NCBI GenBank assembly: GCA_005110395.1
Contig: DUDU01000059.1
Span: 5,877-69,876, forward strand
Reading direction: 5' to 3'
Length of the DNA: 64,000 nt
Origin: Candidatus Melainabacteria bacterium
GTDB taxonomy: Bacteria; Cyanobacteriota; Vampirovibrionia; Caenarcaniphilales; Caenarcanaceae
Below are positions 11,283-45,903 of the stretch, in pieces. The notes under the pieces were generated by a model. It saw nothing but the letters and a program-made list of their open reading frames with translations. It did not search any database and was not told where the DNA came from. Position numbers and translations under genes: made by a program. Every line of letters begins with the position of its first letter. The first letter of the stretch is position 1.

Positions 11283-14200
11283 ATGCGCCTTATGAATTTA
11301 GCGTCTACTCAAACAATTCCTTCTTCTGGACAGTCAGCATCTTTAGCTGGACTGATCAATCAGATTAAGGATGGGGAAGCTAAGAAAAAACAGGCAGTAA
11401 AGAGTAAAGGCAAAAATAATATTGTTGTTCTGAATGGAAAAACAACTCAAAGAACAAGGAAGAAAAAAGATGATGAAGTTTCTCAAGGAGGATTAAGCCA
11501 GTCTAGTCAAAATGCGACTACTTCAATTCCCCCAACACAAAGTCCTAGCTCTAGCTTAGTTAATGCATTCGCAAATCCAGCCATTGCAACACCAACCACG
11601 ATTGCGATTTCTTCTTTATTGGCTTTAGCCCCAGTAGGCATTACAAAAATATCCAATCAATTTATAGATCGCAAATATAGTGAAGACTTTGCTCAAAAGC
11701 TACTTTCCAAGGAATTGTTCTCTGACAAAGAATTAGCTGAAATATATGACAAAGCAGTTTCTTTTCTATTAAATCCAGACAAAATCAAAATGTCTAAGAG
11801 ATTACGCTCCATGTATAACAACAAGAAACAGTTGGAAGATGGTGAAAAAGAATATAGAAAATTAGTTCTAGGTACTTGCCGTATTATCGTTTCTGGGAAA
11901 TTGCCAGTTCTGAATTGGGATGGGGATGGTTTCCAATTATTTAAGAATCAAAATTTTGTTAGCGCAACTGCTCCAACCGAAGCCAATGTAGACAGATCAA
12001 ATATTGCAACCACAGCTTTGTTTTTGCGGAGGTTTAAAAGCTTTATAAAACCATACAATCAAAGTACTGGTGCAAACGTTGACCCCAAAGATATTGCCCT
12101 TTATAAGTTCCTGACGATGCGAGCTGGGGCTTGGGATGGAAGAAGTTATAGACGTATACCACGTACTCCATTTTGGGAAAAAGCCGCTGATGGTTCATGG
12201 GCTGTTGGTATTCACAAAGAAGATGCTATTGATTCAACCATGGCAGAGTTAGGATTAGGTCCAGAATATGAACATCCTTTAGTTGAAGCAATTTCTTATC
12301 TTGGTTTGGGTGGAGTTGTGGATATTAAAAATGGAGGACAAATTCATTACAAAAAACCAGGTGATTCGAAAATCAATGGTGACAAAACTCAAGGAAGAAA
12401 ATTCATGAGAAGCGTTAATGAGACGTGGGAAAAATTGCAAAGTGTTTCTTCCGATCAATCAACGGTTAATCATCATTTAGAGAGACTTTCCAAATTATCT
12501 GGTGAAGAGTTTTTAAAGGAATATGAGAAATATGTCAAAGATGGTCAGTACAAAGATATTCATTTAGATGGCTTAATCGGTGAATTAGCTCTATTGACCA
12601 AAAAAGCTGGAATCAATGTTCTCGAAGTCAAAATGGTTCCCGAATACACTATTTCAGAAGAATGGGATCATTCGGGTGAAGAGCCGACGCTGAAAAATGA
12701 TTTTGGAATGCGTTACTACTTGAATGAAGCTCTTGATCTAAAGGCTGAAGGCAAAGAATGGAAAAGTTTTCTTCTGGATAAATTCAGGCCGCTTAGCAAT
12801 AATTCCTATGACAAAAGTCGAATTCCAGTAACTTCAAGATTATGGAATAAACTCACAAACTCAAATGATTTACATTCAATAGTCAAAGAATTTACATTAG
12901 GTGCAGTATTCAATTCGGTTTCTCACGCAATTGATGGGATTAATGCAATGGTTAATCCTGACTCACCAACCTATGATTATTACAAAGATTTACTGAGAAA
13001 TCTCTATAAAAAATATGCGAATGCACCTGAAGTTTTAGAGCATTTGAGTCAGCTTGGACAAGGATATGAAGCTCTGTTTGAGGAAATTAAAGATGGCAAG
13101 CAGGTGAAAAAGGGCATATTCAAAATGGCTGATAATGGAGTAAAAGCGCCATATATTGAATTTTCGGGATATTTTGCAAAAGATGCTTTTGAGAGAAGCC
13201 CTTGGGGAACAGTTGTTGCTGGTGGAGATAGTCAATCAACTGATTTAATAATGATTCTTGAAGCTATCGATCAAGCTTATGAAGAAAGAGAAAAAGCGAT
13301 AGAAAGCTTTCAAGCGTCCAAAGAGTTTTTGTCAGGAATAGGTAAATGGAAATATACGGCCGCAGAAGAAGCCAAAATGCTTCAAATAATTCAGGAAGAT
13401 GGCCTTGCTCTCGGTAAAAAAGCTCGAGGTCAAATAGATTTATTTAATGACAAGGCAAAAGAGCATATGCTCACTTGTGCTTTGAAAGATGGCGCATCTG
13501 CTGGATATGGATCTAGACCTTTTGCGGTTAAACAAAATGGCGATCAGTATGAATTAGTTGGACCTGAATATTCCGATCAATACAAAGGCAAAATAGTATC
13601 TAAAGAAGAGCTTTATAAGATATTTGAGAAAGTCGCTTCCCCTTGGTATGACGCTCGTATTAGTACTGCTCCAGATGTACATCAAAACAATCAGCAAATG
13701 GCAGAAGTCTGGCATTCACTTATGGGTGTGGATACAGATAAATTGAATACCAACATATTAGCTGAAGCAATTATTGGTAGAAACAATACAGATCGCAAAT
13801 GGGGCGCAAGCTTATTAATGCCTTATCACAAATGGCACGATCAATTAAGAGAAACCTTAGAAATCAAATCTCCAAAAGGGGTTTTTGATTTACCAACTAC
13901 TTTCATTCGTAGAGCCCCGGAAATCGGAGGAACTTTAGGACTAGCTGGAGCTGTCTTGGCCATGATTGGAGTTGCTGGTGAAGTTTATGACAATGTTGCG
14001 CATGATAATAAATTTGATCAGTCTTTCAGAGACATGGTTGCTAAAGCTTTCAGTTTATCCAATTTAGGATTAGCAATTACAACAGCTTTTGTAAAACCTA
14101 TTTTCTGGCCTTTCCAGGTTTTGGGTTCTCTTCTCGGTATTTCATCAGGCTTTTTACCTTCTGGCAGGCTTCAACAATACGTTGCTCTTGGTTCTATGGC

Positions 14201-15326
14201 TGCTTGGTTATTTGGCTCAGCCAGAGAAATGGGACATGATCAATGTACTTTTTTGGATACTCCCAAAGCACAGGATGAAGCTGAAAGAAAAGCTGAATTT
14301 ACAGTTGAGAATGATTTCTTACAATCAGGTTTTGAAGGTAAGAAAACAAATTATGATATTAAAGGGATTTTGACTCATCGTAATAGAGAGTCATCCAAAT
14401 TAATGGGCGACTTGGTTGAGAAAAAAGGTTGGTTGCCATTATTTGCTAAACCATTTGCTGATTTATCTTGGAATATAAATGCGTTTAAAGATGTTATTCG
14501 TGATCCCAAGTTGTTAAAGCTTGATAATTTGGTTTCGGTGGTTAATGGATTCAAATATGAACCAGCTCCTCACAGCATGCCACATCTGATAAATATGGGG
14601 GGCTGGATTTCAGTAGGCCTACTTGGTGCTACCGCTGCTATTCAGGCCATTAGCCATTTTACAAAGAAAGATCAAGAAGACGGAAAAACTTCAAGCACAG
14701 CTAATTCAGCAGAAGAAACACCTTCTGAATTACAAAAAATTTCTCAGAAAATGAAGGCAAGAGGAGTAAAGAATGGTAGAACTCCAGCTCCTAGTAGTCG
14801 TACATTATTAGATCCAAGAGTTACATCAAAACAAAAAATAGCAATTGAGAATTCTGGACTTGATAAAGCTGCTAGTGCGGTTGGTAGTTTGTCAGCTCTA
14901 ATACCTGCATTGGTATTTATTCTTCAAGGCTGGCTTCGCTCACAAAATGCAACTGGTAGTAGATTATTCTGGGCTACTGAAACTGGTGCGCAAAGATGGT
15001 ATAGGCCAGACGTTCTTGGAAAAGGTTTAATGATTTCAGCCGGATTACAAGCTGCTTCTGCTTTAGGTGTTACGGCTGGAGCCTTAGGTGCTTATGGGTC
15101 CAATACCAATGTAGTTGGGGTTGTTCAGAGTATGAATTATTTGGGTGCAGCTTTAGCATTGGCTTTTCAATCAATAGGTATCAAAGAAGGAGATGCAATT
15201 GGATTTATCAGAGACAGACTCTCTCTAATGCCCGATGGGAAAGGTGGATATAGACCAAATTCATATATGGGAGATCCACTAGAATGCCATGCGGTTTTGA
15301 GTGAAAGAAAAAGGGCAAATGCTTGA
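11283..15326 (+). CDS. Giant orphan protein (1347 aa): S/T/Q-rich N-terminus, ~900-aa soluble region, C-terminal ~450 aa with multiple glycine-zipper hydrophobic helices
   Basis: One long ORF. Hydrophobic segments GGTLGLAGAVLAMIGVAGEV, FWPFQVLGSLLGISSGF, GGWISVGLLGATAAIQAI and GLMISAGLQAASALGVTAGALGAYG. No motif I recognise. Confidence 0.7.
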   Translation: MRLMNLASTQTIPSSGQSASLAGLINQIKDGEAKKKQAVKSKGKNNIVVLNGKTTQRTRKKKDDEVSQGGLSQSSQNATTSIPPTQSPSSSLVNAFANPAIATPTTIAISSLLALAPVGITKISNQFIDRKYSEDFAQKLLSKELFSDKELAEIYDKAVSFLLNPDKIKMSKRLRSMYNNKKQLEDGEKEYRKLVLGTCRIIVSGKLPVLNWDGDGFQLFKNQNFVSATAPTEANVDRSNIATTALFLRRFKSFIKPYNQSTGANVDPKDIALYKFLTMRAGAWDGRSYRRIPRTPFWEKAADGSWAVGIHKEDAIDSTMAELGLGPEYEHPLVEAISYLGLGGVVDIKNGGQIHYKKPGDSKINGDKTQGRKFMRSVNETWEKLQSVSSDQSTVNHHLERLSKLSGEEFLKEYEKYVKDGQYKDIHLDGLIGELALLTKKAGINVLEVKMVPEYTISEEWDHSGEEPTLKNDFGMRYYLNEALDLKAEGKEWKSFLLDKFRPLSNNSYDKSRIPVTSRLWNKLTNSNDLHSIVKEFTLGAVFNSVSHAIDGINAMVNPDSPTYDYYKDLLRNLYKKYANAPEVLEHLSQLGQGYEALFEEIKDGKQVKKGIFKMADNGVKAPYIEFSGYFAKDAFERSPWGTVVAGGDSQSTDLIMILEAIDQAYEEREKAIESFQASKEFLSGIGKWKYTAAEEAKMLQIIQEDGLALGKKARGQIDLFNDKAKEHMLTCALKDGASAGYGSRPFAVKQNGDQYELVGPEYSDQYKGKIVSKEELYKIFEKVASPWYDARISTAPDVHQNNQQMAEVWHSLMGVDTDKLNTNILAEAIIGRNNTDRKWGASLLMPYHKWHDQLRETLEIKSPKGVFDLPTTFIRRAPEIGGTLGLAGAVLAMIGVAGEVYDNVAHDNKFDQSFRDMVAKAFSLSNLGLAITTAFVKPIFWPFQVLGSLLGISSGFLPSGRLQQYVALGSMAAWLFGSAREMGHDQCTFLDTPKAQDEAERKAEFTVENDFLQSGFEGKKTNYDIKGILTHRNRESSKLMGDLVEKKGWLPLFAKPFADLSWNINAFKDVIRDPKLLKLDNLVSVVNGFKYEPAPHSMPHLINMGGWISVGLLGATAAIQAISHFTKKDQEDGKTSSTANSAEETPSELQKISQKMKARGVKNGRTPAPSSRTLLDPRVTSKQKIAIENSGLDKAASAVGSLSALIPALVFILQGWLRSQNATGSRLFWATETGAQRWYRPDVLGKGLMISAGLQAASALGVTAGALGAYGSNTNVVGVVQSMNYLGAALALAFQSIGIKEGDAIGFIRDRLSLMPDGKGGYRPNSYMGDPLECHAVLSERKRANA

Positions 15327-28691: not shown

Positions 28692-28827
28692 TCTAAGTTA
28701 AAGGCAGTATTTTTTATTGAAGATAAATGTATGAACTCACTAGATCATGAAAACATTTAAATGAACTGATAAAATCAACTCATTCAGTTAAATCATTAAT
28801 TCCTTTAAGTCAAATTTTTGAAAAGTT

Positions 28828-29205
28828 ATGAGCAAGAAATTCTTTTGGGGTAAAAAATATGTTCTCAGTAGCGGTAGAGAAATAGATATAAGCAGCGAAG
28901 AAGAAACCCAAGGTGTAGTTTCAAGTTTAGCCATATTAAATCATCTTGATTCTGTGCACGAGATTACAAAACCAATTTCGATTAGAATGCAATGGGATAG
29001 TCCAAACAGCGATCCAGTATTATCCATTGAATGTCGCGGAGGAGCCCCTGGTGACACAAGACCAGTTAGTGAGTCAGAAATGCCAGTTGAAGGGTTAAAT
29101 GGGCACAAAGATAAATTGAAAGCTAGCGAATTGATTGAATTATTTGATGTGATGAATAAAGTACATCAGAAGATCAGAAAAGAATTGAATCAAACTGCAG
29201 TTTAA
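28828..29205 (+). CDS. Hypothetical protein (125 aa)
   Basis: ORF only; lies just upstream of the putative restriction-like gene. Confidence 0.4.
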   Translation: MSKKFFWGKKYVLSSGREIDISSEEETQGVVSSLAILNHLDSVHEITKPISIRMQWDSPNSDPVLSIECRGGAPGDTRPVSESEMPVEGLNGHKDKLKASELIELFDVMNKVHQKIRKELNQTAV

Positions 29206-29296: not shown

Positions 29297-30883
29297 ATGC
29301 CTTTCAATCATTTCGCCTGGAATAATTACAAACAGACAAATAGATATACAGAAATTTGTAATTTATTTTCTTCTGGTTCTATTAATACTTTCAATCTAGA
29401 GAGGGAAATCTTTGATGCCTATTTCAATAATTTCAAGGAAATACTAAGTGATGGACCTGCTATTTCCAGCATTGATGATGCTTTTGGCTTTTATTTGAAT
29501 TCTGTAATGGAATTTGAAGACATTACTCTTTCTGATGAATATGAAGAAAAATTTGGTGCTGAAATAGGATCAGAAGAAGGCATTGAATGGACTCAACAAA
29601 AATGGTTAGAAGAACGTAAAAAAGAAAATAAAAATGAAAGACTTTATATCAGGATCAATGGGAATATTGCCGAAATCAGTTCTGCTTTGTTTAAATCAGA
29701 ACCTGAATACTTTCTTCCATATTTCTACAATCCATTTATCAAGTTAGACTTTTTGCAAAAAGAGAAATTCGATTTAAGTTTTGATTTATTTCAGAAGATT
29801 TGTAATGAGTTTGACATCAATCTCTTGGAGACACCAGCGAAAACTGAATTAATTGATAGGGCTTCTTATTACATGGAAATTTGCTGCGATTTATATGATT
29901 TTCGAATTGAGCATAAATTAACACCAATTGAAATGTGTGCTTTTTTGTATGATTTTGCTCCTAAATTTTGTGAAGAAACTAGGGATAAAGATTTACCATC
30001 ACCTTTGCGAGTATGGCTTATTAAAGGAGCTCACGGTGGGGAACAGGATTTTAATTGGCTTGAACAAAATACAGGAAGCAATACTCGTACTTATTGGAAT
30101 GGAAATATAAGAACAAAAAGAGGAGATATACTCCTTATGTATTGTGTTTCTCCATATTCTTATATTCATTCGATTTGGAGAGCAAACTGCGATGGCTTCG
30201 TCAATCCATTCTTTTATTTTCATAATCAAATTGAAATAACTAATGGAATTAAAGTACCAACAATTTCCTTTCTAGAATTACAAAAAACTGAGTTGATTTC
30301 TGTTAAGCCTGAAATGAAGGCAAAGCTCCAAACTAATACTGGAGGAATTGAATTCAGCAATTCAGAATATTGTGAATTACAAAATCTTCTTCAAAAAAAA
30401 GGATTTGATACTTCTTGTTTGGAACAACTTCCATTCTCTGATATAGCTCTTGAAATGAATATCAATGATGAATTGGATGTGGAAGACAAGCTATTAGAAC
30501 CATTATTAAAAGAGTTGGGGTTTACAGAAAGAGACTGGATTAGGCAGCACTCAATAAGAATAGGAACAAGAGAAAGAATTATTCCTGATTATATTTTTGG
30601 TTTAAAAGTAAATAAAGAAAATGAAATAGCAAAAATGATTATAGAGGCAAAGTTTAGATACCAAAAAGCCACATTGAAAGAACAGGAAATGCATTTCAAA
30701 CAAGCTCGTTCATATGCCTTAAACCTTCAATCATCAAAATTATTAATTGCAGATAAAGATGGGTTAGTTTGGTTTTACAAAGTGAACAATGATTTCGATA
30801 AAAATAATGTTGAGGTCTTTTCTTGGCCTGCCTTAAAATCTCCAGAAACTTTTCAAAAATTAAAAATATTGGTGAATGAATAA
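29297..30883 (+). CDS. Three-domain protein: unknown N-terminal domain, PUA-like (EVE-like) domain, C-terminal HsdR-N-type PD-(D/E)xK nuclease domain; putative modification-dependent (type IV-like) restriction endonuclease
   Basis: C-terminus LLEPLLKELGFTERDWIRQHSI...IIPDYIFGL...KMIIEAKF...QARSYA fits the HSDR_N/HSDR_N_2 PD..ExK pattern. Middle VWLIKGAHGG..W...TYWNGNIRTKRGDILLMYCVSP..IHSIW resembles EVE/PUA-like domains. Confidence 0.6.
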   Translation: MPFNHFAWNNYKQTNRYTEICNLFSSGSINTFNLEREIFDAYFNNFKEILSDGPAISSIDDAFGFYLNSVMEFEDITLSDEYEEKFGAEIGSEEGIEWTQQKWLEERKKENKNERLYIRINGNIAEISSALFKSEPEYFLPYFYNPFIKLDFLQKEKFDLSFDLFQKICNEFDINLLETPAKTELIDRASYYMEICCDLYDFRIEHKLTPIEMCAFLYDFAPKFCEETRDKDLPSPLRVWLIKGAHGGEQDFNWLEQNTGSNTRTYWNGNIRTKRGDILLMYCVSPYSYIHSIWRANCDGFVNPFFYFHNQIEITNGIKVPTISFLELQKTELISVKPEMKAKLQTNTGGIEFSNSEYCELQNLLQKKGFDTSCLEQLPFSDIALEMNINDELDVEDKLLEPLLKELGFTERDWIRQHSIRIGTRERIIPDYIFGLKVNKENEIAKMIIEAKFRYQKATLKEQEMHFKQARSYALNLQSSKLLIADKDGLVWFYKVNNDFDKNNVEVFSWPALKSPETFQKLKILVNE

Positions 30884-32977: not shown

Positions 32978-33216
32978 TTGCTTTGCTAATTTATTTGGGA
33001 TTTACAGAAAATTATGAGTAATCAAGTATGCCATGAGCGAACGGCTATCACAAGTATGCACCTGAGGCAATGGTCTATCACAATTTAGACAGGAGCTCAA
33101 ATCTATTCGTAAATGCTAATGAATAGATTTCTAAAATTCATAATCAGAGTAAAAATAAGCAAATTTTCTTCTTGTTAACTTAATCAATCAAAAAATTTTA
33201 GGCTAATATATTTAAA

Positions 33217-33300
33217 CCGTTGAATGCGATGTGAATCAGCGAACCTGGTCAGGGGGGAAACTCAGCAGCCATAAGTTTGTGAAGCAGGTGCTTTCAACGG
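33217..33300 (+). ncRNA. ffs: Signal recognition particle RNA (small 4.5S type)
   Basis: CCUGGUCAGG-GGG-GAAA-CUC-AGCAGCCAUAAG matches the conserved helix-8 (domain IV) motif; closing stem ccgttgaa/ttcaacgg (8 bp). Confidence 0.65.
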
Positions 33301-33333
33301 CTCCATGATTAATTCATGTTTCAGTAAGATTAA

Positions 33334-40971: not shown

Positions 40972-43900
40972 TTAATCATCAAACTTAACCTTAGGTAAAT
41001 TATTCACTATATCCACTGTTTGCATACTCACATTGATAATACTCAAAAGTAAATCTAAAATATATCGTGGTTTTCCCGTTTCCGTTGCCCAATCGTTCGG
41101 ATCGTTTTTAATACCGCTCTCTTTGTGTACTGTTACTTGATAGCGTTCCATTATCCATTCAATCGCACTTTTTCCATTTACTACATATTGATATGCTTTT
41201 TCTGGAATATGTTCTATCGTGATTTGAGAATTATAAATAATCTTCTCTTTCTGTCCTTTGGCTGGGAACCGCATCTTTTCTACTCGATAATTTAAGTATT
41301 CTAATTCGTCTTTGTTTACCTGCTCTAAAGTATCTTTCATTGATAATGGACTAAGTAGTGTTATCACATCTGGCGAAGGTGGAACTGTTTCATAATTCAA
41401 ATGTAATTCTGCTAATTGTCTTCCTGCTTTGCTAAATGCCCAAAAGTCTTTCACATCCTCTAATAATGGCAATCTTGGCAACATTTTCTTTAAATCATTA
41501 GAAAATTTTTCTCTGTATTCCTTGCTGTGCAGAAAACCATAAACATAATAAAAAATATCTTCTTTGCTTACATTTTTACCGTATTGTTTTTTTGCTCTCT
41601 CTAAAATGAAATCACTGATTGCATCTCTGCGGATATATTTTTGTTCGCCAGTGGCATCAAATAAATTTAGTTTTTCCTGTTTTGTGTTGTTTTCTTCATA
41701 GTAATAAAGTGGGAAACATTGGCAAGCTGACAGCAAGCCCAGATCTGGAATGTTATTTACAATTAATGATGAATGAAATTTTGAATCTCCTGTGCCTGGG
41801 ATACAAATCAAAATATTTTCAATATTATTTTCAGGAAATAAAATAGGGAGCTTGGCAAGATCATTAACAATTTGTCTATCATAGAATATGTTCATCTTTG
41901 AAAATGGTCTATAATGCCCCATTCGCATCTTCCTGTTACTAAAAATATACTTTTTGCCTTTTACTAAATCATCTCTTAAGGCTCTTGACCAACTAATTTT
42001 AGTCTCGTTAGAATCAATAAAATCTTCAACTTTTGGTTTTGAAATCAAAGATGAATAATCATCAACTTGCTGATTGTAAAAATCCATTGTTCTTCTGGAA
42101 TTTAAAAGAACAGCATCTTTTGAGTAATTATAAACCCAAGCATCTCTGTTTGTTTTGACTCCATTAGAGTACAAAGGGACAAAGAAAGTACTTTTATTCT
42201 GCTTATCATCTTTATCACCTAAAGGAATATAATTTTCAAAAGCATCATTCCTAACACTGATCCAATCATTATGTTCATTAGGTTCTAATACTTTCAACGG
42301 TAAATCTGGATTTCCAAAGGATTTAAAATTACTGATGGTTTTGAGCTTATCTTCACGATTTAAATAATCACCAATGTCATAGTAATGAATACTTGCTTTT
42401 TCTGTTTTTATATCTGGATTTTTAACTAACAACGTTATTGAAATTGTATCTCTACACCCTGAACCAAAAACGTTACCTTTTTCTTTTTGTCTTAATTCAC
42501 CACTTGTCCTAGCATTGCCCCTCAAGTTGAACACATAAATTGAGGTAAATTCTTCCTCTATTGATTTGCGGAAACCATCAGCACTATTACTATCAATCCA
42601 GTTACCATTAGAAACAAAACATATAATACCTCCTGTTTTATCTAATCTATCTGCACTCCATCTAAAAGCTTTTATATAGCTGTTATAAAGAGAGTTTTTA
42701 TTTGTAGCACTAGTAAGCTTTGCATAAGTATCAGCGATGCGGTTATTTAGCTTTGGATATGCCTGATTTTGTGCATTGTCATTAGCAGAGGTCTGTCCGG
42801 CAGAATAAGGCGGATTACCCATAATAATACGCAAGGGGGCTTTTTGTTGTTTTTGTACTCTCTCTGAGTTTTGAGGAAACATTTCAGAGAATAATTTTTG
42901 ACCTTCTTCTGTTTCCCCAAGCTGAAAAGTATCAGTTAAGCATATACCTTCAAAAGGGAAATATTTTTCTTTTCCAATTCCATCATCAGGATCAGGTGTA
43001 GCGTCATGATAAGCATTTTCAATATTGATAGTTGCGATATAGTAAGCCAATAGAACAATTTCATTAGCATGAAGCTCTTGGTTGTATTTTCTATCTAAAT
43101 CTTTTTCTTCAATCAATCCACTCTGAAACAATCGAACCATAAAAGTACCAGTACCAGTGAATGGATCGAGTATATGAACATTTTCATCGGAGATAGAACG
43201 ATTAAATTCCTTTTTCAAAATATCATTGACTGAATGTATGATGAAATCAACTACTTCAACAGGGGTATAAACAATACCTAGTTTTTCCACCATTTTTGGA
43301 AAAGCTGTTTTAAAGAACTTATCGTACAACTCAATAATAATGCGTTGTTTCCCTTCAGCATTATCAATGTCAGAGGCACGAATTCTAACTGATTCATAAA
43401 ACTTTTGAAGTTCTTCTGTGTCTTTTTCTATGATCTTTTCTTCCAATAAATCCAACATTTTCTGCATAGACCTACTAATTGGATTGTTTTTCACGAAAGA
43501 ATATCCTTCAAACAAAGCATCGAATACTGGTTTTGTGATTATATGTTGAGATAGCATTTCAATAGCTTCATTCTGAGAAATGCTGGGATTTATGTTTTGA
43601 TGCAGCCCTTCTAAAAAAATATTAAATTCTTTCTGATGTTTTGGATTTTCATTAATAATTTTAGTAATGCGTTCTGTTTGTCTTGTAGCAATATCAGCTA
43701 CTGATTTAGCCCATTGTTCCCAATATCTTTTGTCACCGACTTTCTGAACCATTCGGGCAAATACCACTGATTGTAATTGTTGAAATTGCAGTGATAGCTG
43801 TTCAGAGATATTTTTAGATGATGGAATATTCCCCGTATCTGGATAGACTGGATTCCCCTCTCTATCAAATGAAATCTCAGGACGACCAACTAAAATTTGT

Positions 43901-45903
43901 TCGGGTTTATTTTTATTGAGTTCAATTTTATTTACAGTTGCATTGAAACGATCATCATGAGCCCTAAGTGCATTCAATACAGTCCAAACAACTTTATATC
44001 TTTCATTATCATTCAGCGCCTGATCAGGCTCAACATTTGAAGGAACAACAATTGGAATAATGATATAGCCATATTTTTTATTGGGGGCTTTTCGCATAAC
44101 CCGACCAACAGACTGGACTACGTCAACTTGTGAATTTCGAGCGGATAAGAATAAAACCGCATCCAAAGAAGGTACATCAACTCCTTCACTAAGACAGCGT
44201 ACATTTGTTAAAATTCGACATTCTCTTTCTTCTGGTTCATCTTTCAGCCAAGATAATAATTCATTTCTTTGAGTAGCATTCATTGAGCCGTCTATGTGCT
44301 TTGATGATACTAACTGCATTGAGCTTTGTTTTTCTGTAGGTAACTCAGAAATATAACTATCAGTTGCAATATTTAAAGTATTTGTTATTTTTTTTGATAC
44401 TGCGATACTTTGACAAAAAGCAACTGCTCTTCTCATTGGCTCTGGATCGGTTTCTTTTATAATCCCTTCATCCCCTAGAATTTGTTTTGAAAGTGCATTA
44501 ATACAGCCTATTAATTTCGAAGCATCATCAGTATTAATTTCATTTTCTTTGTCCATTATCATTTTTTGGACGGCTGGCGGTACATCATTCTCGTTGAGAG
44601 TCAGTATGAGAACCTTATAATCAGCTAATAAATCTTTCTCTACTGCTTCACCAAAACCGATTCTATATATTTCTTCACCATACAAACTGACATCATCCAT
44701 TGAACACAAAGTAGCTTCTGCTTGTGCGGCTTTACTCTTTGTTTCACCATCATATAATCGAGGAGTAGCAGTCATATAAAGGCGTTTTTTTGCTTTTATA
44801 AAATCATTGTTATGAACTTTAGTAAATGCACTTTCATCTTCATCAGCCAATGAAACTCCAGTAGTACGATGTGCTTCATCACAAATAATCAAATCAAACT
44901 CTGAAAATTCTGGATTGTATTTAGCTATTTCTTTTTGGGCTTTTGAAATAACTTCAATAGACTGATAAGTAGAAAAAACAACAGTTAAGCCATTATTTGA
45001 TTTTATTTTCAGGCATTTAAACTGGTGCAAAATACTTTTCACATCAGTAGAAGCTGGATATGCTAAATCTAAAACTGAGGATGTATCAATATCTTCTAAT
45101 TTTTTTCTTTTTTTTGTTATTTCAGGATCCGAACAAATACATATTGCATTGATTGGTTCTTTAGCATCTGCATACCATTCATTGAGAGTTTGCCCTAATA
45201 ATGCAATAGAAGGGACTAAGAACAATATTAAGCCTTTACCTTTAGTTTCATTTTCTGCAATACGAAGAGAAGTAAAAGTTTTCCCAGTACCACAAGCCAT
45301 AATGAGTTTACCTCTATCATTAGCTTGTAAATGTTCATTAGTTTTATTCAGAGCTTCTATTTGATGATGTCGTAATTCTTTTTTTTGTATTCTAGCTTCT
45401 TGTCCACAAATCCCATTCTCTAACTTACCCCAATCAATAGGAGAATTTATGAGATCATACAATCCCAATTTCATTACAGGTATTTGTTGATTCTCAAAAC
45501 TTTTTTCAGCATTAATTGAAAATGATTTACCTGTGGTATCAATCCAAAGTCTATACGCAAAAGATGTTGTTTTACAATCTTCTCCCTTGAATGAACGTCC
45601 AGAGGTAGTAATGAAAGTATCAACTTCTTTTTTGTCGATTATAGTACCTTCTTTGTAGCATTTACACTGTATAGCCCAATAATCACCTGTATGGGTTAAT
45701 GCAACTAAATCAATGCCAGTATCCTGTCCACCAAATTCTTGTTTACTAGGAAATTCTTCCCATAACCAAACTTTTTTTAGATTATCTGCATATTTAGGAT
45801 CTGTAAGCAAATAGGCTTTCATTAAGCGTTCAAATTTTGCACCCTTATCTCTTTCAGAAAAGGCAAATTTACGGTACTTTTCTAAGATTTGTTGAAAGCT
45901 CAT
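40972..45903 (-). CDS. Type ISP single-polypeptide restriction-modification enzyme (Mrr-like nuclease + SF2 helicase-like ATPase + gamma-class N6-adenine methyltransferase + target-recognition domain; LlaGI/LlaBIII-like)
   Basis: N-terminal PD-(D/E)xK GIDLVALTH..DYWAIQCKCY; Walker A MACGTGKTFT; DEAH LIICDEAHRTTG; methyltransferase motif I ILDPFTGTGTF; motif IV MGNPPYSAG; 1643 aa. Confidence 0.85.
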   Translation of the reverse strand: MSFQQILEKYRKFAFSERDKGAKFERLMKAYLLTDPKYADNLKKVWLWEEFPSKQEFGGQDTGIDLVALTHTGDYWAIQCKCYKEGTIIDKKEVDTFITTSGRSFKGEDCKTTSFAYRLWIDTTGKSFSINAEKSFENQQIPVMKLGLYDLINSPIDWGKLENGICGQEARIQKKELRHHQIEALNKTNEHLQANDRGKLIMACGTGKTFTSLRIAENETKGKGLILFLVPSIALLGQTLNEWYADAKEPINAICICSDPEITKKRKKLEDIDTSSVLDLAYPASTDVKSILHQFKCLKIKSNNGLTVVFSTYQSIEVISKAQKEIAKYNPEFSEFDLIICDEAHRTTGVSLADEDESAFTKVHNNDFIKAKKRLYMTATPRLYDGETKSKAAQAEATLCSMDDVSLYGEEIYRIGFGEAVEKDLLADYKVLILTLNENDVPPAVQKMIMDKENEINTDDASKLIGCINALSKQILGDEGIIKETDPEPMRRAVAFCQSIAVSKKITNTLNIATDSYISELPTEKQSSMQLVSSKHIDGSMNATQRNELLSWLKDEPEERECRILTNVRCLSEGVDVPSLDAVLFLSARNSQVDVVQSVGRVMRKAPNKKYGYIIIPIVVPSNVEPDQALNDNERYKVVWTVLNALRAHDDRFNATVNKIELNKNKPEQILVGRPEISFDREGNPVYPDTGNIPSSKNISEQLSLQFQQLQSVVFARMVQKVGDKRYWEQWAKSVADIATRQTERITKIINENPKHQKEFNIFLEGLHQNINPSISQNEAIEMLSQHIITKPVFDALFEGYSFVKNNPISRSMQKMLDLLEEKIIEKDTEELQKFYESVRIRASDIDNAEGKQRIIIELYDKFFKTAFPKMVEKLGIVYTPVEVVDFIIHSVNDILKKEFNRSISDENVHILDPFTGTGTFMVRLFQSGLIEEKDLDRKYNQELHANEIVLLAYYIATINIENAYHDATPDPDDGIGKEKYFPFEGICLTDTFQLGETEEGQKLFSEMFPQNSERVQKQQKAPLRIIMGNPPYSAGQTSANDNAQNQAYPKLNNRIADTYAKLTSATNKNSLYNSYIKAFRWSADRLDKTGGIICFVSNGNWIDSNSADGFRKSIEEEFTSIYVFNLRGNARTSGELRQKEKGNVFGSGCRDTISITLLVKNPDIKTEKASIHYYDIGDYLNREDKLKTISNFKSFGNPDLPLKVLEPNEHNDWISVRNDAFENYIPLGDKDDKQNKSTFFVPLYSNGVKTNRDAWVYNYSKDAVLLNSRRTMDFYNQQVDDYSSLISKPKVEDFIDSNETKISWSRALRDDLVKGKKYIFSNRKMRMGHYRPFSKMNIFYDRQIVNDLAKLPILFPENNIENILICIPGTGDSKFHSSLIVNNIPDLGLLSACQCFPLYYYEENNTKQEKLNLFDATGEQKYIRRDAISDFILERAKKQYGKNVSKEDIFYYVYGFLHSKEYREKFSNDLKKMLPRLPLLEDVKDFWAFSKAGRQLAELHLNYETVPPSPDVITLLSPLSMKDTLEQVNKDELEYLNYRVEKMRFPAKGQKEKIIYNSQITIEHIPEKAYQYVVNGKSAIEWIMERYQVTVHKESGIKNDPNDWATETGKPRYILDLLLSIINVSMQTVDIVNNLPKVKFDD
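41006..41065. repeat. Direct repeat copy B: the genuine 3' coding end of the Type ISP gene
   Basis: See copy A; the two copies are 753 bp apart. Confidence 0.7.

Follow-up and report, generated by a model that had tools for sequence, protein, structure and literature searches.

A predicted modification-dependent restriction nuclease with an EVE-like domain from a Melainabacteria genome, and its family in scattered bacteria and temperate phages

The window analyzed here (64,000 nucleotides [nt] of contig DUDU01000059.1, from a freshwater Melainabacteria metagenome-assembled genome) carries, among housekeeping genes, an open reading frame (ORF) for a protein of three parts: a helical N-terminal domain, a predicted EVE-like β-barrel of the PUA superfamily and a C-terminal PD-(D/E)xK nuclease domain of the HsdR-N/RecB type with an intact catalytic motif. 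Relatives of this gene are solitary and patchily distributed across bacteria, and in temperate phages the gene often sits in the lysogeny module. With moderate confidence, we regard its product as a solitary type IV (modification-dependent) restriction endonuclease that needs no nucleoside triphosphate and serves in defense against phages. A preliminary description of the window, made from its letters, had proposed an enzyme of this kind; the reader-plus-nuclease anatomy on which that proposal drew was supported, while modification-dependent restriction itself is still a prediction.

Domain anatomy of the protein

The ORF was confirmed as a gene and agreed with its preliminary description in length (528 amino acids [aa] and a stop codon) and in its ATG start. 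Homologs (n = 165; E values down to 1e-91) were ~500 aa long and aligned end to end at 30 to 42% identity, and the N-terminal motif MxFNxYxWxLYK is kept in the family, which validates the start codon. Residues 1-527 also matched positions 1-494 of the 495 in the profile phrog_37753 (“unknown function”; E = 8.8e-85). Conservation of residues and rates of Pfam matches were determined on an alignment of 44 diverse members; an AlphaFold2 (AF2) model was built on the 44-sequence alignment, and the limits of the parts were set from DSSP and the predicted local distance difference test (pLDDT). The full-length model (pLDDT of 84.4, predicted template modeling score [pTM] of 0.80) was compact and multidomain, with three parts. 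Direct sequence searches returned little: a single-sequence Pfam search gave solely a subthreshold HSDR_N match, NCBIfam gave no match, and neither the single sequence, the full profile nor the nuclease consensus found a match for this protein in PDB.

The nuclease domain has an α-β-β-β-α-β topology in the model. E401, D431, E450, K452 and Q469 are invariant among the 44 members, with none of the catalytic D/E/K positions substituted, and Y473 is conserved in at least 90% of them. All four motifs by which the domain had first been recognized were located (LLEPLLKELGF with E401, IPDYIF with D431, IIEAKF with E450 and K452, and QARSYA with Q469 and Y473); its HsdR-N type stands, whereas its length, first put at ~110 aa, is ~138 aa once helix α-1 with E401 is included. 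Pfam HSDR_N matched 24 of the 44 members at E < 0.1 (best, 7.9e-6) and HSDR_N_2 matched seven, the family consensus scoring 22.6 and 18 bits against thresholds of 25.1 (PF04313) and 25 (PF13588), respectively. The window protein itself scored 14.6 bits against HSDR_N (E = 0.031), below the gathering threshold, and three database members of the family carry a precomputed PF04313 match. Judged by sequence, HSDR_N membership appears borderline for the window protein and supported at the level of the family.

Structural comparison likewise gave restriction endonuclease folds and argued for a nuclease at the C terminus. A separate model of aa 385-528 (pLDDT of 93.6) was obtained, and Foldseek matched the nuclease domain model to 9y1l, a putative restriction endonuclease domain protein (probability 0.99), to the type IIG enzyme BpuSI (0.98), to DrdV (0.97) and to BsaXI; further matches were Holliday-junction resolvases, including Hjc and RecU. 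In BFVD, a phage protein named “HsdR N-terminal domain” (probability 0.99) and RecB-family nucleases matched the same domain. When aligned by hhalign with a bona fide HSDR_N phage endonuclease (Pfam E = 5.7e-12), the EPLL..LGY, D-Y, E-x-K and Q-x-x-x-Y elements all fell into register, D431, E450-A-K452 and Q469-ARS-Y473 pairing with VDY, ECK and QLHRY of the phage enzyme. QxxxY is the motif of the RecB family whose importance for cleavage was demonstrated in the HsdR subunit of EcoR124I (PMC2475608). The 528 aa hold no helicase, methyltransferase or specificity module, and the protein is therefore not a Type I, IIG or ISP enzyme.

The middle domain forms a small β-barrel with flanking helices in the model. 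A Foldseek search of PDB with the whole model placed four EVE proteins at the top (2gbs, 2hd9, 2p5d and 1zce; E from 3.4e-4 for 2gbs to 7.8e-3, probability 1.00, TM scores of 0.54 to 0.67 normalized to the ~145-aa target), with ASCH and YTH domains next in rank, and matches in BFVD were to ASCH and DUF3850. The EVE/PUA-like character proposed earlier was thus borne out by predicted fold, over ~137 aa and not the ~90 aa first given. Pfam EVE offered weaker support than HSDR_N did for the nuclease: three of the 44 members matched at E < 0.1 (best E = 0.0039), and the family consensus reached 12.2 bits (E = 0.19) over positions 42-144 of the 145 in PF01878. By its modeled structure the domain is EVE-like, yet by sequence threshold it lies outside Pfam EVE. 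The motifs quoted for it were again found in place (VWLIK with W240, TYWNGN with W267, KRGDILLMYCVSP with G276, D277 and P286, and IHSIW with H291, S292 and W294), and ten residues are invariant: W267, G276, D277, P286, H291, S292, W294, R295, P304 and Y358. In VcaM4I, the flipped 5-methylcytosine (5mC) or 5-hydroxymethylcytosine (5hmC) is sandwiched between W82 and Y130, with a contribution from P24 (PMC7897488); by analogy, the invariant aromatics W267, W294 and Y358 may line a base pocket in the window protein.

An enzyme directed at RNA, whose EVE-like domain would recognize a base modification of tRNA, rRNA or phage RNA and whose nuclease would cut RNA for defense, as a toxin or in turnover, seems to us very unlikely. 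EVE and PUA domains were at first regarded as RNA binding (PMC6765204), CoCoNuTs, which are related to type IV systems, are predicted to target RNA (PMC11090510), and tRNA-splicing endonucleases were among the weaker Foldseek matches of the nuclease domain. These last matches were low, however (probability 0.06 to 0.57), the best ones being the DNA restriction enzymes named above, and E...D...ExK...QxxxY is the motif of HsdR/RecB DNA nucleases (PMC2475608).

The N-terminal domain is all helical in the model, with P141, E212, F216, F220 and P234 invariant. It had no match in Pfam, even with the family consensus, and no convincing fold match in PDB or BFVD. With a profile of its conserved core, HMMER retrieved 366 proteins from 1.84 billion cluster representatives, 311 of them at E ≤ 1e-10; the 150 matches listed all lay at about residues 100-230, either in proteins of ~500 aa or in shorter, probable fragments. 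Since this exhaustive search met family members alone, the domain appears, as far as sequence profiles can tell, to be confined to this nuclease family.

Distribution of the family and its prophage context

A pattern-based scan of 185,579 species, each represented by a single genome, led to 185 confirmed relatives from more than 10 phyla (Myxococcota, Acidobacteriota, Chloroflexota, Desulfobacterota, Planctomycetota, Bacteroidota, Synergistota, Deinococcota, Pseudomonadota and others), at most ~36 to 42% identical to the window protein. The family comprises ~366 clusters (50% identity) in the 1.84e9 representatives, and is thus rare and patchy; two matches were on plasmids, both of Deinococcus. 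Clustering of all ORFs from 78 nonredundant chromosomal loci revealed no conserved neighbor or operon partner, and hsdM and hsdS were absent among conserved neighbors. In a Pfam scan of the immediate neighbors (n = 143), no family occurred more than four times and N6_Mtase occurred once. Solitary loci of this kind fit the observation that modification-dependent restriction endonucleases (MDREs) made of a PUA-superfamily domain and a nuclease seldom adjoin methyltransferases (PMC6765204). A minority of the immediate neighbors were defense or toxin-antitoxin genes (Shedu SduA, PDC-S01, SoFic, HicB and MADS), and repressor-like matches near the copies in the 78 chromosomal loci were just scattered and weak.

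In the host species of the window, the gene is fixed and intact. Ten contigs of the species from different metagenomes each carried it uninterrupted with zero or one nucleotide difference, amounting to two differences in 1587 nt in all; these contigs are essentially clonal, which makes a population-level analysis of selection uninformative. Fixation, together with the ordinary metabolic and housekeeping neighbors of the window copy and of many chromosomal copies, would suit a housekeeping repair or recombination nuclease that recognizes bases of the cell's own DNA when they are damaged or unusual. Such a role is nonetheless highly improbable in our estimation: the family is extremely sparse and its members are scattered across the phylogeny, related Caenarcaniphilales are without the gene at the equivalent locus, the family recurs in prophage lysogeny modules, and no synteny with repair genes is conserved.

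In IMG/VR, 92 viral contigs carried a family gene, in ~11 sequence groups. Their loci, which contain genes for repressors, integrases, single-stranded DNA-binding protein (SSB), RecT/Sak4 and HNH proteins, are genuine regions of temperate phages. In 62 of 78 viral loci, the family gene lay directly downstream of, and co-oriented with, a cI-like repressor with helix-turn-helix (HTH) and Peptidase_S24 domains, mostly at a distance of 2 to 54 bp. This lysogenically expressed, cI-adjacent position is typical of prophage defense genes (PMC6426596, PMC12894663). The co-oriented position next to cI is shared with the λ RexAB-type and mycobacteriophage prophage defense genes (PMC6426596, PMC12894663), but the proteins and mechanisms are unrelated and the likeness is positional and ecological only. 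The remaining 16 of the 78 viral loci (L106, L121 and L145 among them) had no cI-like repressor before the family gene, which there was divergent from a run of small ORFs resembling early genes, at the position where the repressor would be expected.

The tight linkage to the repressor in the majority of viral loci, and the occupation of the expected repressor position opposite the early genes in the 16 others, could also be taken to indicate a function in the prophage life cycle: regulation of the immunity region, induction, or a modification-independent exclusion of the phage's own relatives, with the chromosomal copies as remnants. To this possibility we assign the lowest likelihood of those considered. 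Most chromosomal copies, the window copy included, are without prophage context yet keep all catalytic and reader residues, and regulation needs no reader-plus-nuclease design.

The cI-adjacent prophage site is likewise home to RexAB-like abortive-infection systems, and an abortive-infection nuclease is a second way to interpret it. The ligand of the EVE-like domain would then be a free modified (deoxy)nucleotide or a short oligonucleotide released during infection and not a base in the target DNA; its binding would allosterically switch on a nonspecific nuclease, and the infected cell would be killed or arrested. Free modified nucleotides can serve PUA-family sensors as danger signals, the PUA-Cal-HAD system binding m6-dAMP (PMC12871103); the extra N-terminal domain could drive a signal-dependent assembly, and a solitary, patchy distribution fits here too. 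Against it, the characterized reader-nuclease fusions of the PUA family, VcaM4I and TspA15I, read bases in DNA (PMC6765204, PMC7897488), no data speak specifically for a diffusible ligand, and no conserved signal-making partner was found nearby. We hold abortive infection to be unlikely and retain modification-dependent restriction of DNA as the probable function.

One group of prophages carries a second nuclease gene directly after the family gene (L102:9211-10287, forward strand, in IMGVR_UViG_2529292815_000002). Its product of 359 aa has an N-terminal HSDR_N domain (Pfam E = 5.7e-12), matches phrog_4225 (“endonuclease”) and continues into a C-terminal part of ~230 aa. It may be another defense protein that joins a nuclease to a sensor, making a small defense cluster within the lysogeny module.

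Proposed mechanism and relation to known systems

As a type IV enzyme, the protein would scan DNA with its EVE-like domain and flip a modified base into a conserved, partly aromatic pocket, for which W267, W294, Y358, D277, H291, S292 and R295 are the candidate residues. The target would most likely be a modified pyrimidine (5mC, 5hmC or a hypermodified derivative). Binding of the base would tether or release the HsdR-N/RecB-like nuclease, which would then make a metal-dependent cut in nearby DNA. The helical N-terminal domain would probably serve oligomerization, autoinhibition of the nuclease until the reader is engaged, or both, the analogy here being the linker helix of VcaM4I, an enzyme that flips 5mC or 5hmC into its pocket and whose EVE domain and linker keep it autoinhibited (PMC7897488). 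Host or prophage DNA without the modification would be spared, and with unmodified self DNA left uncut no cognate methyltransferase or immunity protein would be needed. A bolder proposal, which we advance as doubtful, is that the N-terminal domain with its hypervariable aa 30-110 acts as a second sensory or regulatory module, responding to a phage protein or a distinct hypermodification or mediating signal-dependent oligomerization, so that the enzyme would be a dual-input nuclease, or one reading a DNA modification so far not known as a target, and would serve superinfection exclusion when expressed from the cI operons of temperate phages in gut and oral Bacteroidota.

Several points weigh against modification-dependent restriction as the function. 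It is for this family a computational prediction, and the EVE assignment within it is based on predicted structure: the family consensus did not reach the Pfam EVE gathering threshold (23 bits), the window protein gave no EVE match, and a base pocket lined by the invariant aromatics is putative. RNA binding is also known for EVE, PUA and YTH domains. The window protein had no match to any model in PADLOC-DB v2 at E ≤ 1, and no match to the family was found in deposited phage genomes. The window copy stands among housekeeping genes without hallmarks of mobile elements, and most chromosomal neighbors of family genes are ordinary genes. Finally, a full-length Type ISP restriction-modification enzyme, a second defense gene in the window, is encoded ~10 kb downstream, which suggests that host DNA carries some N6-methyladenine; this modification is probably present and must then be tolerated by the EVE nuclease.

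The family can be set beside several known systems. With the EVE-HNH MDREs (VcaM4I, TspA15I and the CmeDI group; PMC6765204, PMC7897488) it shares a single polypeptide in which an EVE/PUA-like reader precedes the nuclease and is joined to it by a linker, and solitary genes without a methyltransferase partner; an aromatic-walled base-flipping pocket is shown for VcaM4I and putative for the window protein. It differs from them in having a PD-(D/E)xK nuclease of the HsdR-N/RecB type in place of HNH and an extra helical domain of ~235 aa before the reader, in an EVE-like domain that is too divergent for Pfam EVE, and in the lack of sequence similarity between the protein and PDB entries. The logic of reader plus nuclease is already in the literature, including EVE-PD(D/E)XK, which Bell, Wolf and Koonin predicted in 2020 to be a class of type IV enzymes (PMC7641849); YenY4I is organized as EVE-DUF3427-PD-(D/E)XK (PMC6765204). 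Both draw on the same two superfamilies and are, like our family, predicted and not characterized, but the window family stands apart by its barely detectable EVE domain, its unique N-terminal domain, its HSDR_N nuclease and the lack of DUF3427. The three-domain order had not been recognized in the preliminary description; its N-terminal domain is indeed specific to the family, whereas the architecture as such is that of phrog_37753 and its EVE-PD(D/E)XK portion resembles a class predicted before (PMC7641849).

The analogy first drawn was with PvuRts1I and AbaSI. These enzymes and the MspJI family resemble the window protein in fusing a PUA-superfamily reader to a nuclease of PD-(D/E)xK or related type and in being ATP independent, solitary and modification dependent; their readers are SRA-like, whereas that of the window protein is EVE-like, and no sequence or fold match to them appeared in the Foldseek searches of PDB. 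PvuRts1I and AbaSI have a Vsr-like nuclease at the N terminus and the SRA-like domain at the C terminus. Here the reader precedes the nuclease, with EVE-like and HSDR_N-like folds, and membership in the PvuRts1I/AbaSI family was rejected: the fusion logic carries over, the reader type and the domain order do not. Type I HsdR (EcoR124I) and the Type IIG/IIL enzymes BpuSI and DrdV have in common with the window protein the nuclease subfamily (HSDR_N/HSDR_N_2, the D...ExK...QxxxY motif and, for BpuSI and DrdV, fold matches), but the window protein is without the superfamily 2 (SF2) helicase motor, the methyltransferase and specificity modules and HsdM/HsdS partners, and its nuclease is C-terminal. 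An identity as Type I HsdR, IIG or IIL was rejected on these grounds. END nucleases (PMC12191111) were also rejected, having an unrelated architecture (PLD and an inactive EndoIII). The family is set apart by the combination of an HSDR_N nuclease, a divergent reader, a unique 235-aa N-terminal domain and a strong association with cI operons of temperate phages.

Type IV enzymes matter both as defenses against DNA-modifying phages and as reagents for mapping DNA modifications. The databases and literature searched held no characterized enzyme combining EVE with PD-(D/E)xK and no characterized member of this family; those EVE-reader enzymes with experimental characterization that the search turned up are of the EVE-HNH type. 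If the prediction is true, the MDREs would gain a reader/nuclease combination and an accessory domain that are both new to them, and phrog_37753 would gain a function; the strong divergence of the reader makes an unusual specificity possible. A single gene for ~500 aa with clear catalytic and reader residues, carried by many uncultivated temperate phages, is a good candidate for cloning and phage challenge.

The window locus and neighboring genes

Features of the gene and of its surroundings are collected in Table 1. The preliminary description had grouped the small ORF upstream with the nuclease gene, a pairing that did not survive comparison. Homologs of the small ORF form 19 clusters at 58 to 70% identity in Melainabacteria/Caenarcaniphilales; of three relatives examined, two have rpsU (S21) and then ahcY directly downstream of it, and none of the three has the nuclease gene near it. 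No homolog stands beside any other family member, and the ORF had no Pfam or PHROG match. Being absent beside other family members and conserved in its lineage without the nuclease, it is not a partner, and a role as partner, antitoxin or immunity gene was rejected.

The nuclease gene itself looks like a lineage-specific acquisition. Its earlier portrayal as an inserted defense gene is plausible, the relatives being without it, but unproven: no integrase and no convincing flanking direct repeats or scar were found at the locus, and no tRNA gene was found in the 64 kb. Synteny in the three relatives differs from that of the window locus. The G+C content of the gene deviates mildly from that of the window (30.9% versus 35.1%). 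Its neighbors are ordinary, with rpe and sucD adjacent and MutS 4.6 kb upstream. A perfect 15-nt inverted repeat (28813-28827 and 30847-30861; AATTTTTGAAAAGTT and AACTTTTCAAAAATT) brackets the small ORF and the nuclease gene almost exactly; it is AT rich and near palindromic, and by a rough estimate ~0.1 such repeats would arise by chance in 7 kb, near enough to chance level that it may be a coincidence. A scan for promoters and terminators gave sites no more numerous than in shuffled sequence.

Table 1. Features of the nuclease gene, its encoded domains and other genes in the window
Feature	Residues (aa)	Position (nt)	Strand	Basis
Whole gene (N-terminal domain, EVE-like putative reader, HsdR-N-type nuclease)	1-528	29297..30883	+	ORF, homologs, phrog_37753, AF2 model
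N-terminal all-helical domain	1-235	29297..30001	+	DSSP and pLDDT of AF2 model
N-terminal domain, conserved segment of first helices	1-26		+	Alignment and model
N-terminal domain, variable low-confidence segment	~30-110	29384-29626	+	Model
N-terminal domain, conserved core with AFLYDFAP motif	111-235	29627-30001	+	Alignment and model
EVE-like/PUA-superfamily β-barrel, putative modified-base reader	236-372	30002..30412	+	Foldseek, BFVD, weak Pfam EVE, invariants
Interdomain linker	373-390	30413..30466	+	No regular secondary structure in model; length-variable alignment columns
PD-(D/E)xK nuclease, HsdR-N/RecB type	391-528	30467..30880	+	Pfam, domain model, Foldseek, BFVD, hhalign, invariants
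Catalytic codon	E401	30497-30499	+	Alignment
Catalytic codon	D431	30587-30589	+	Alignment
Catalytic codon	E450	30644-30646	+	Alignment
Catalytic codon	K452	30650-30652	+	Alignment
Catalytic codon	Q469	30701-30703	+	Alignment
Catalytic codon	Y473	30713-30715	+	Alignment
Small upstream ORF, lineage-conserved hypothetical (125 aa)		28828..29205	+	Homolog and synteny searches
Bacterial small signal recognition particle (SRP) RNA		33214-33306	+	Rfam RF00169, 47 bits
Type ISP restriction-modification enzyme (1643 aa)		40975-45903	-	LlaBIII 4xqk, E = 0 over residues 17-1640; LlaGI

Elsewhere in the window, a 1347-aa ORF (11283-15323, forward strand) had no PDB sequence match at E ≤ 0.001. The Type ISP ORF carries the Pfam domains Type_ISP_C, ISP_coupler, Mrr_cat_2 and ResIII. 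Besides matches to Type ISP systems, a PADLOC scan of the 49 large window ORFs returned single-ORF matches to PbeA, PDC-S04, PDC-S24, SoFic and ATPase-Toprim (E from 1e-9 to 1e-34), which are perhaps generic domain matches.

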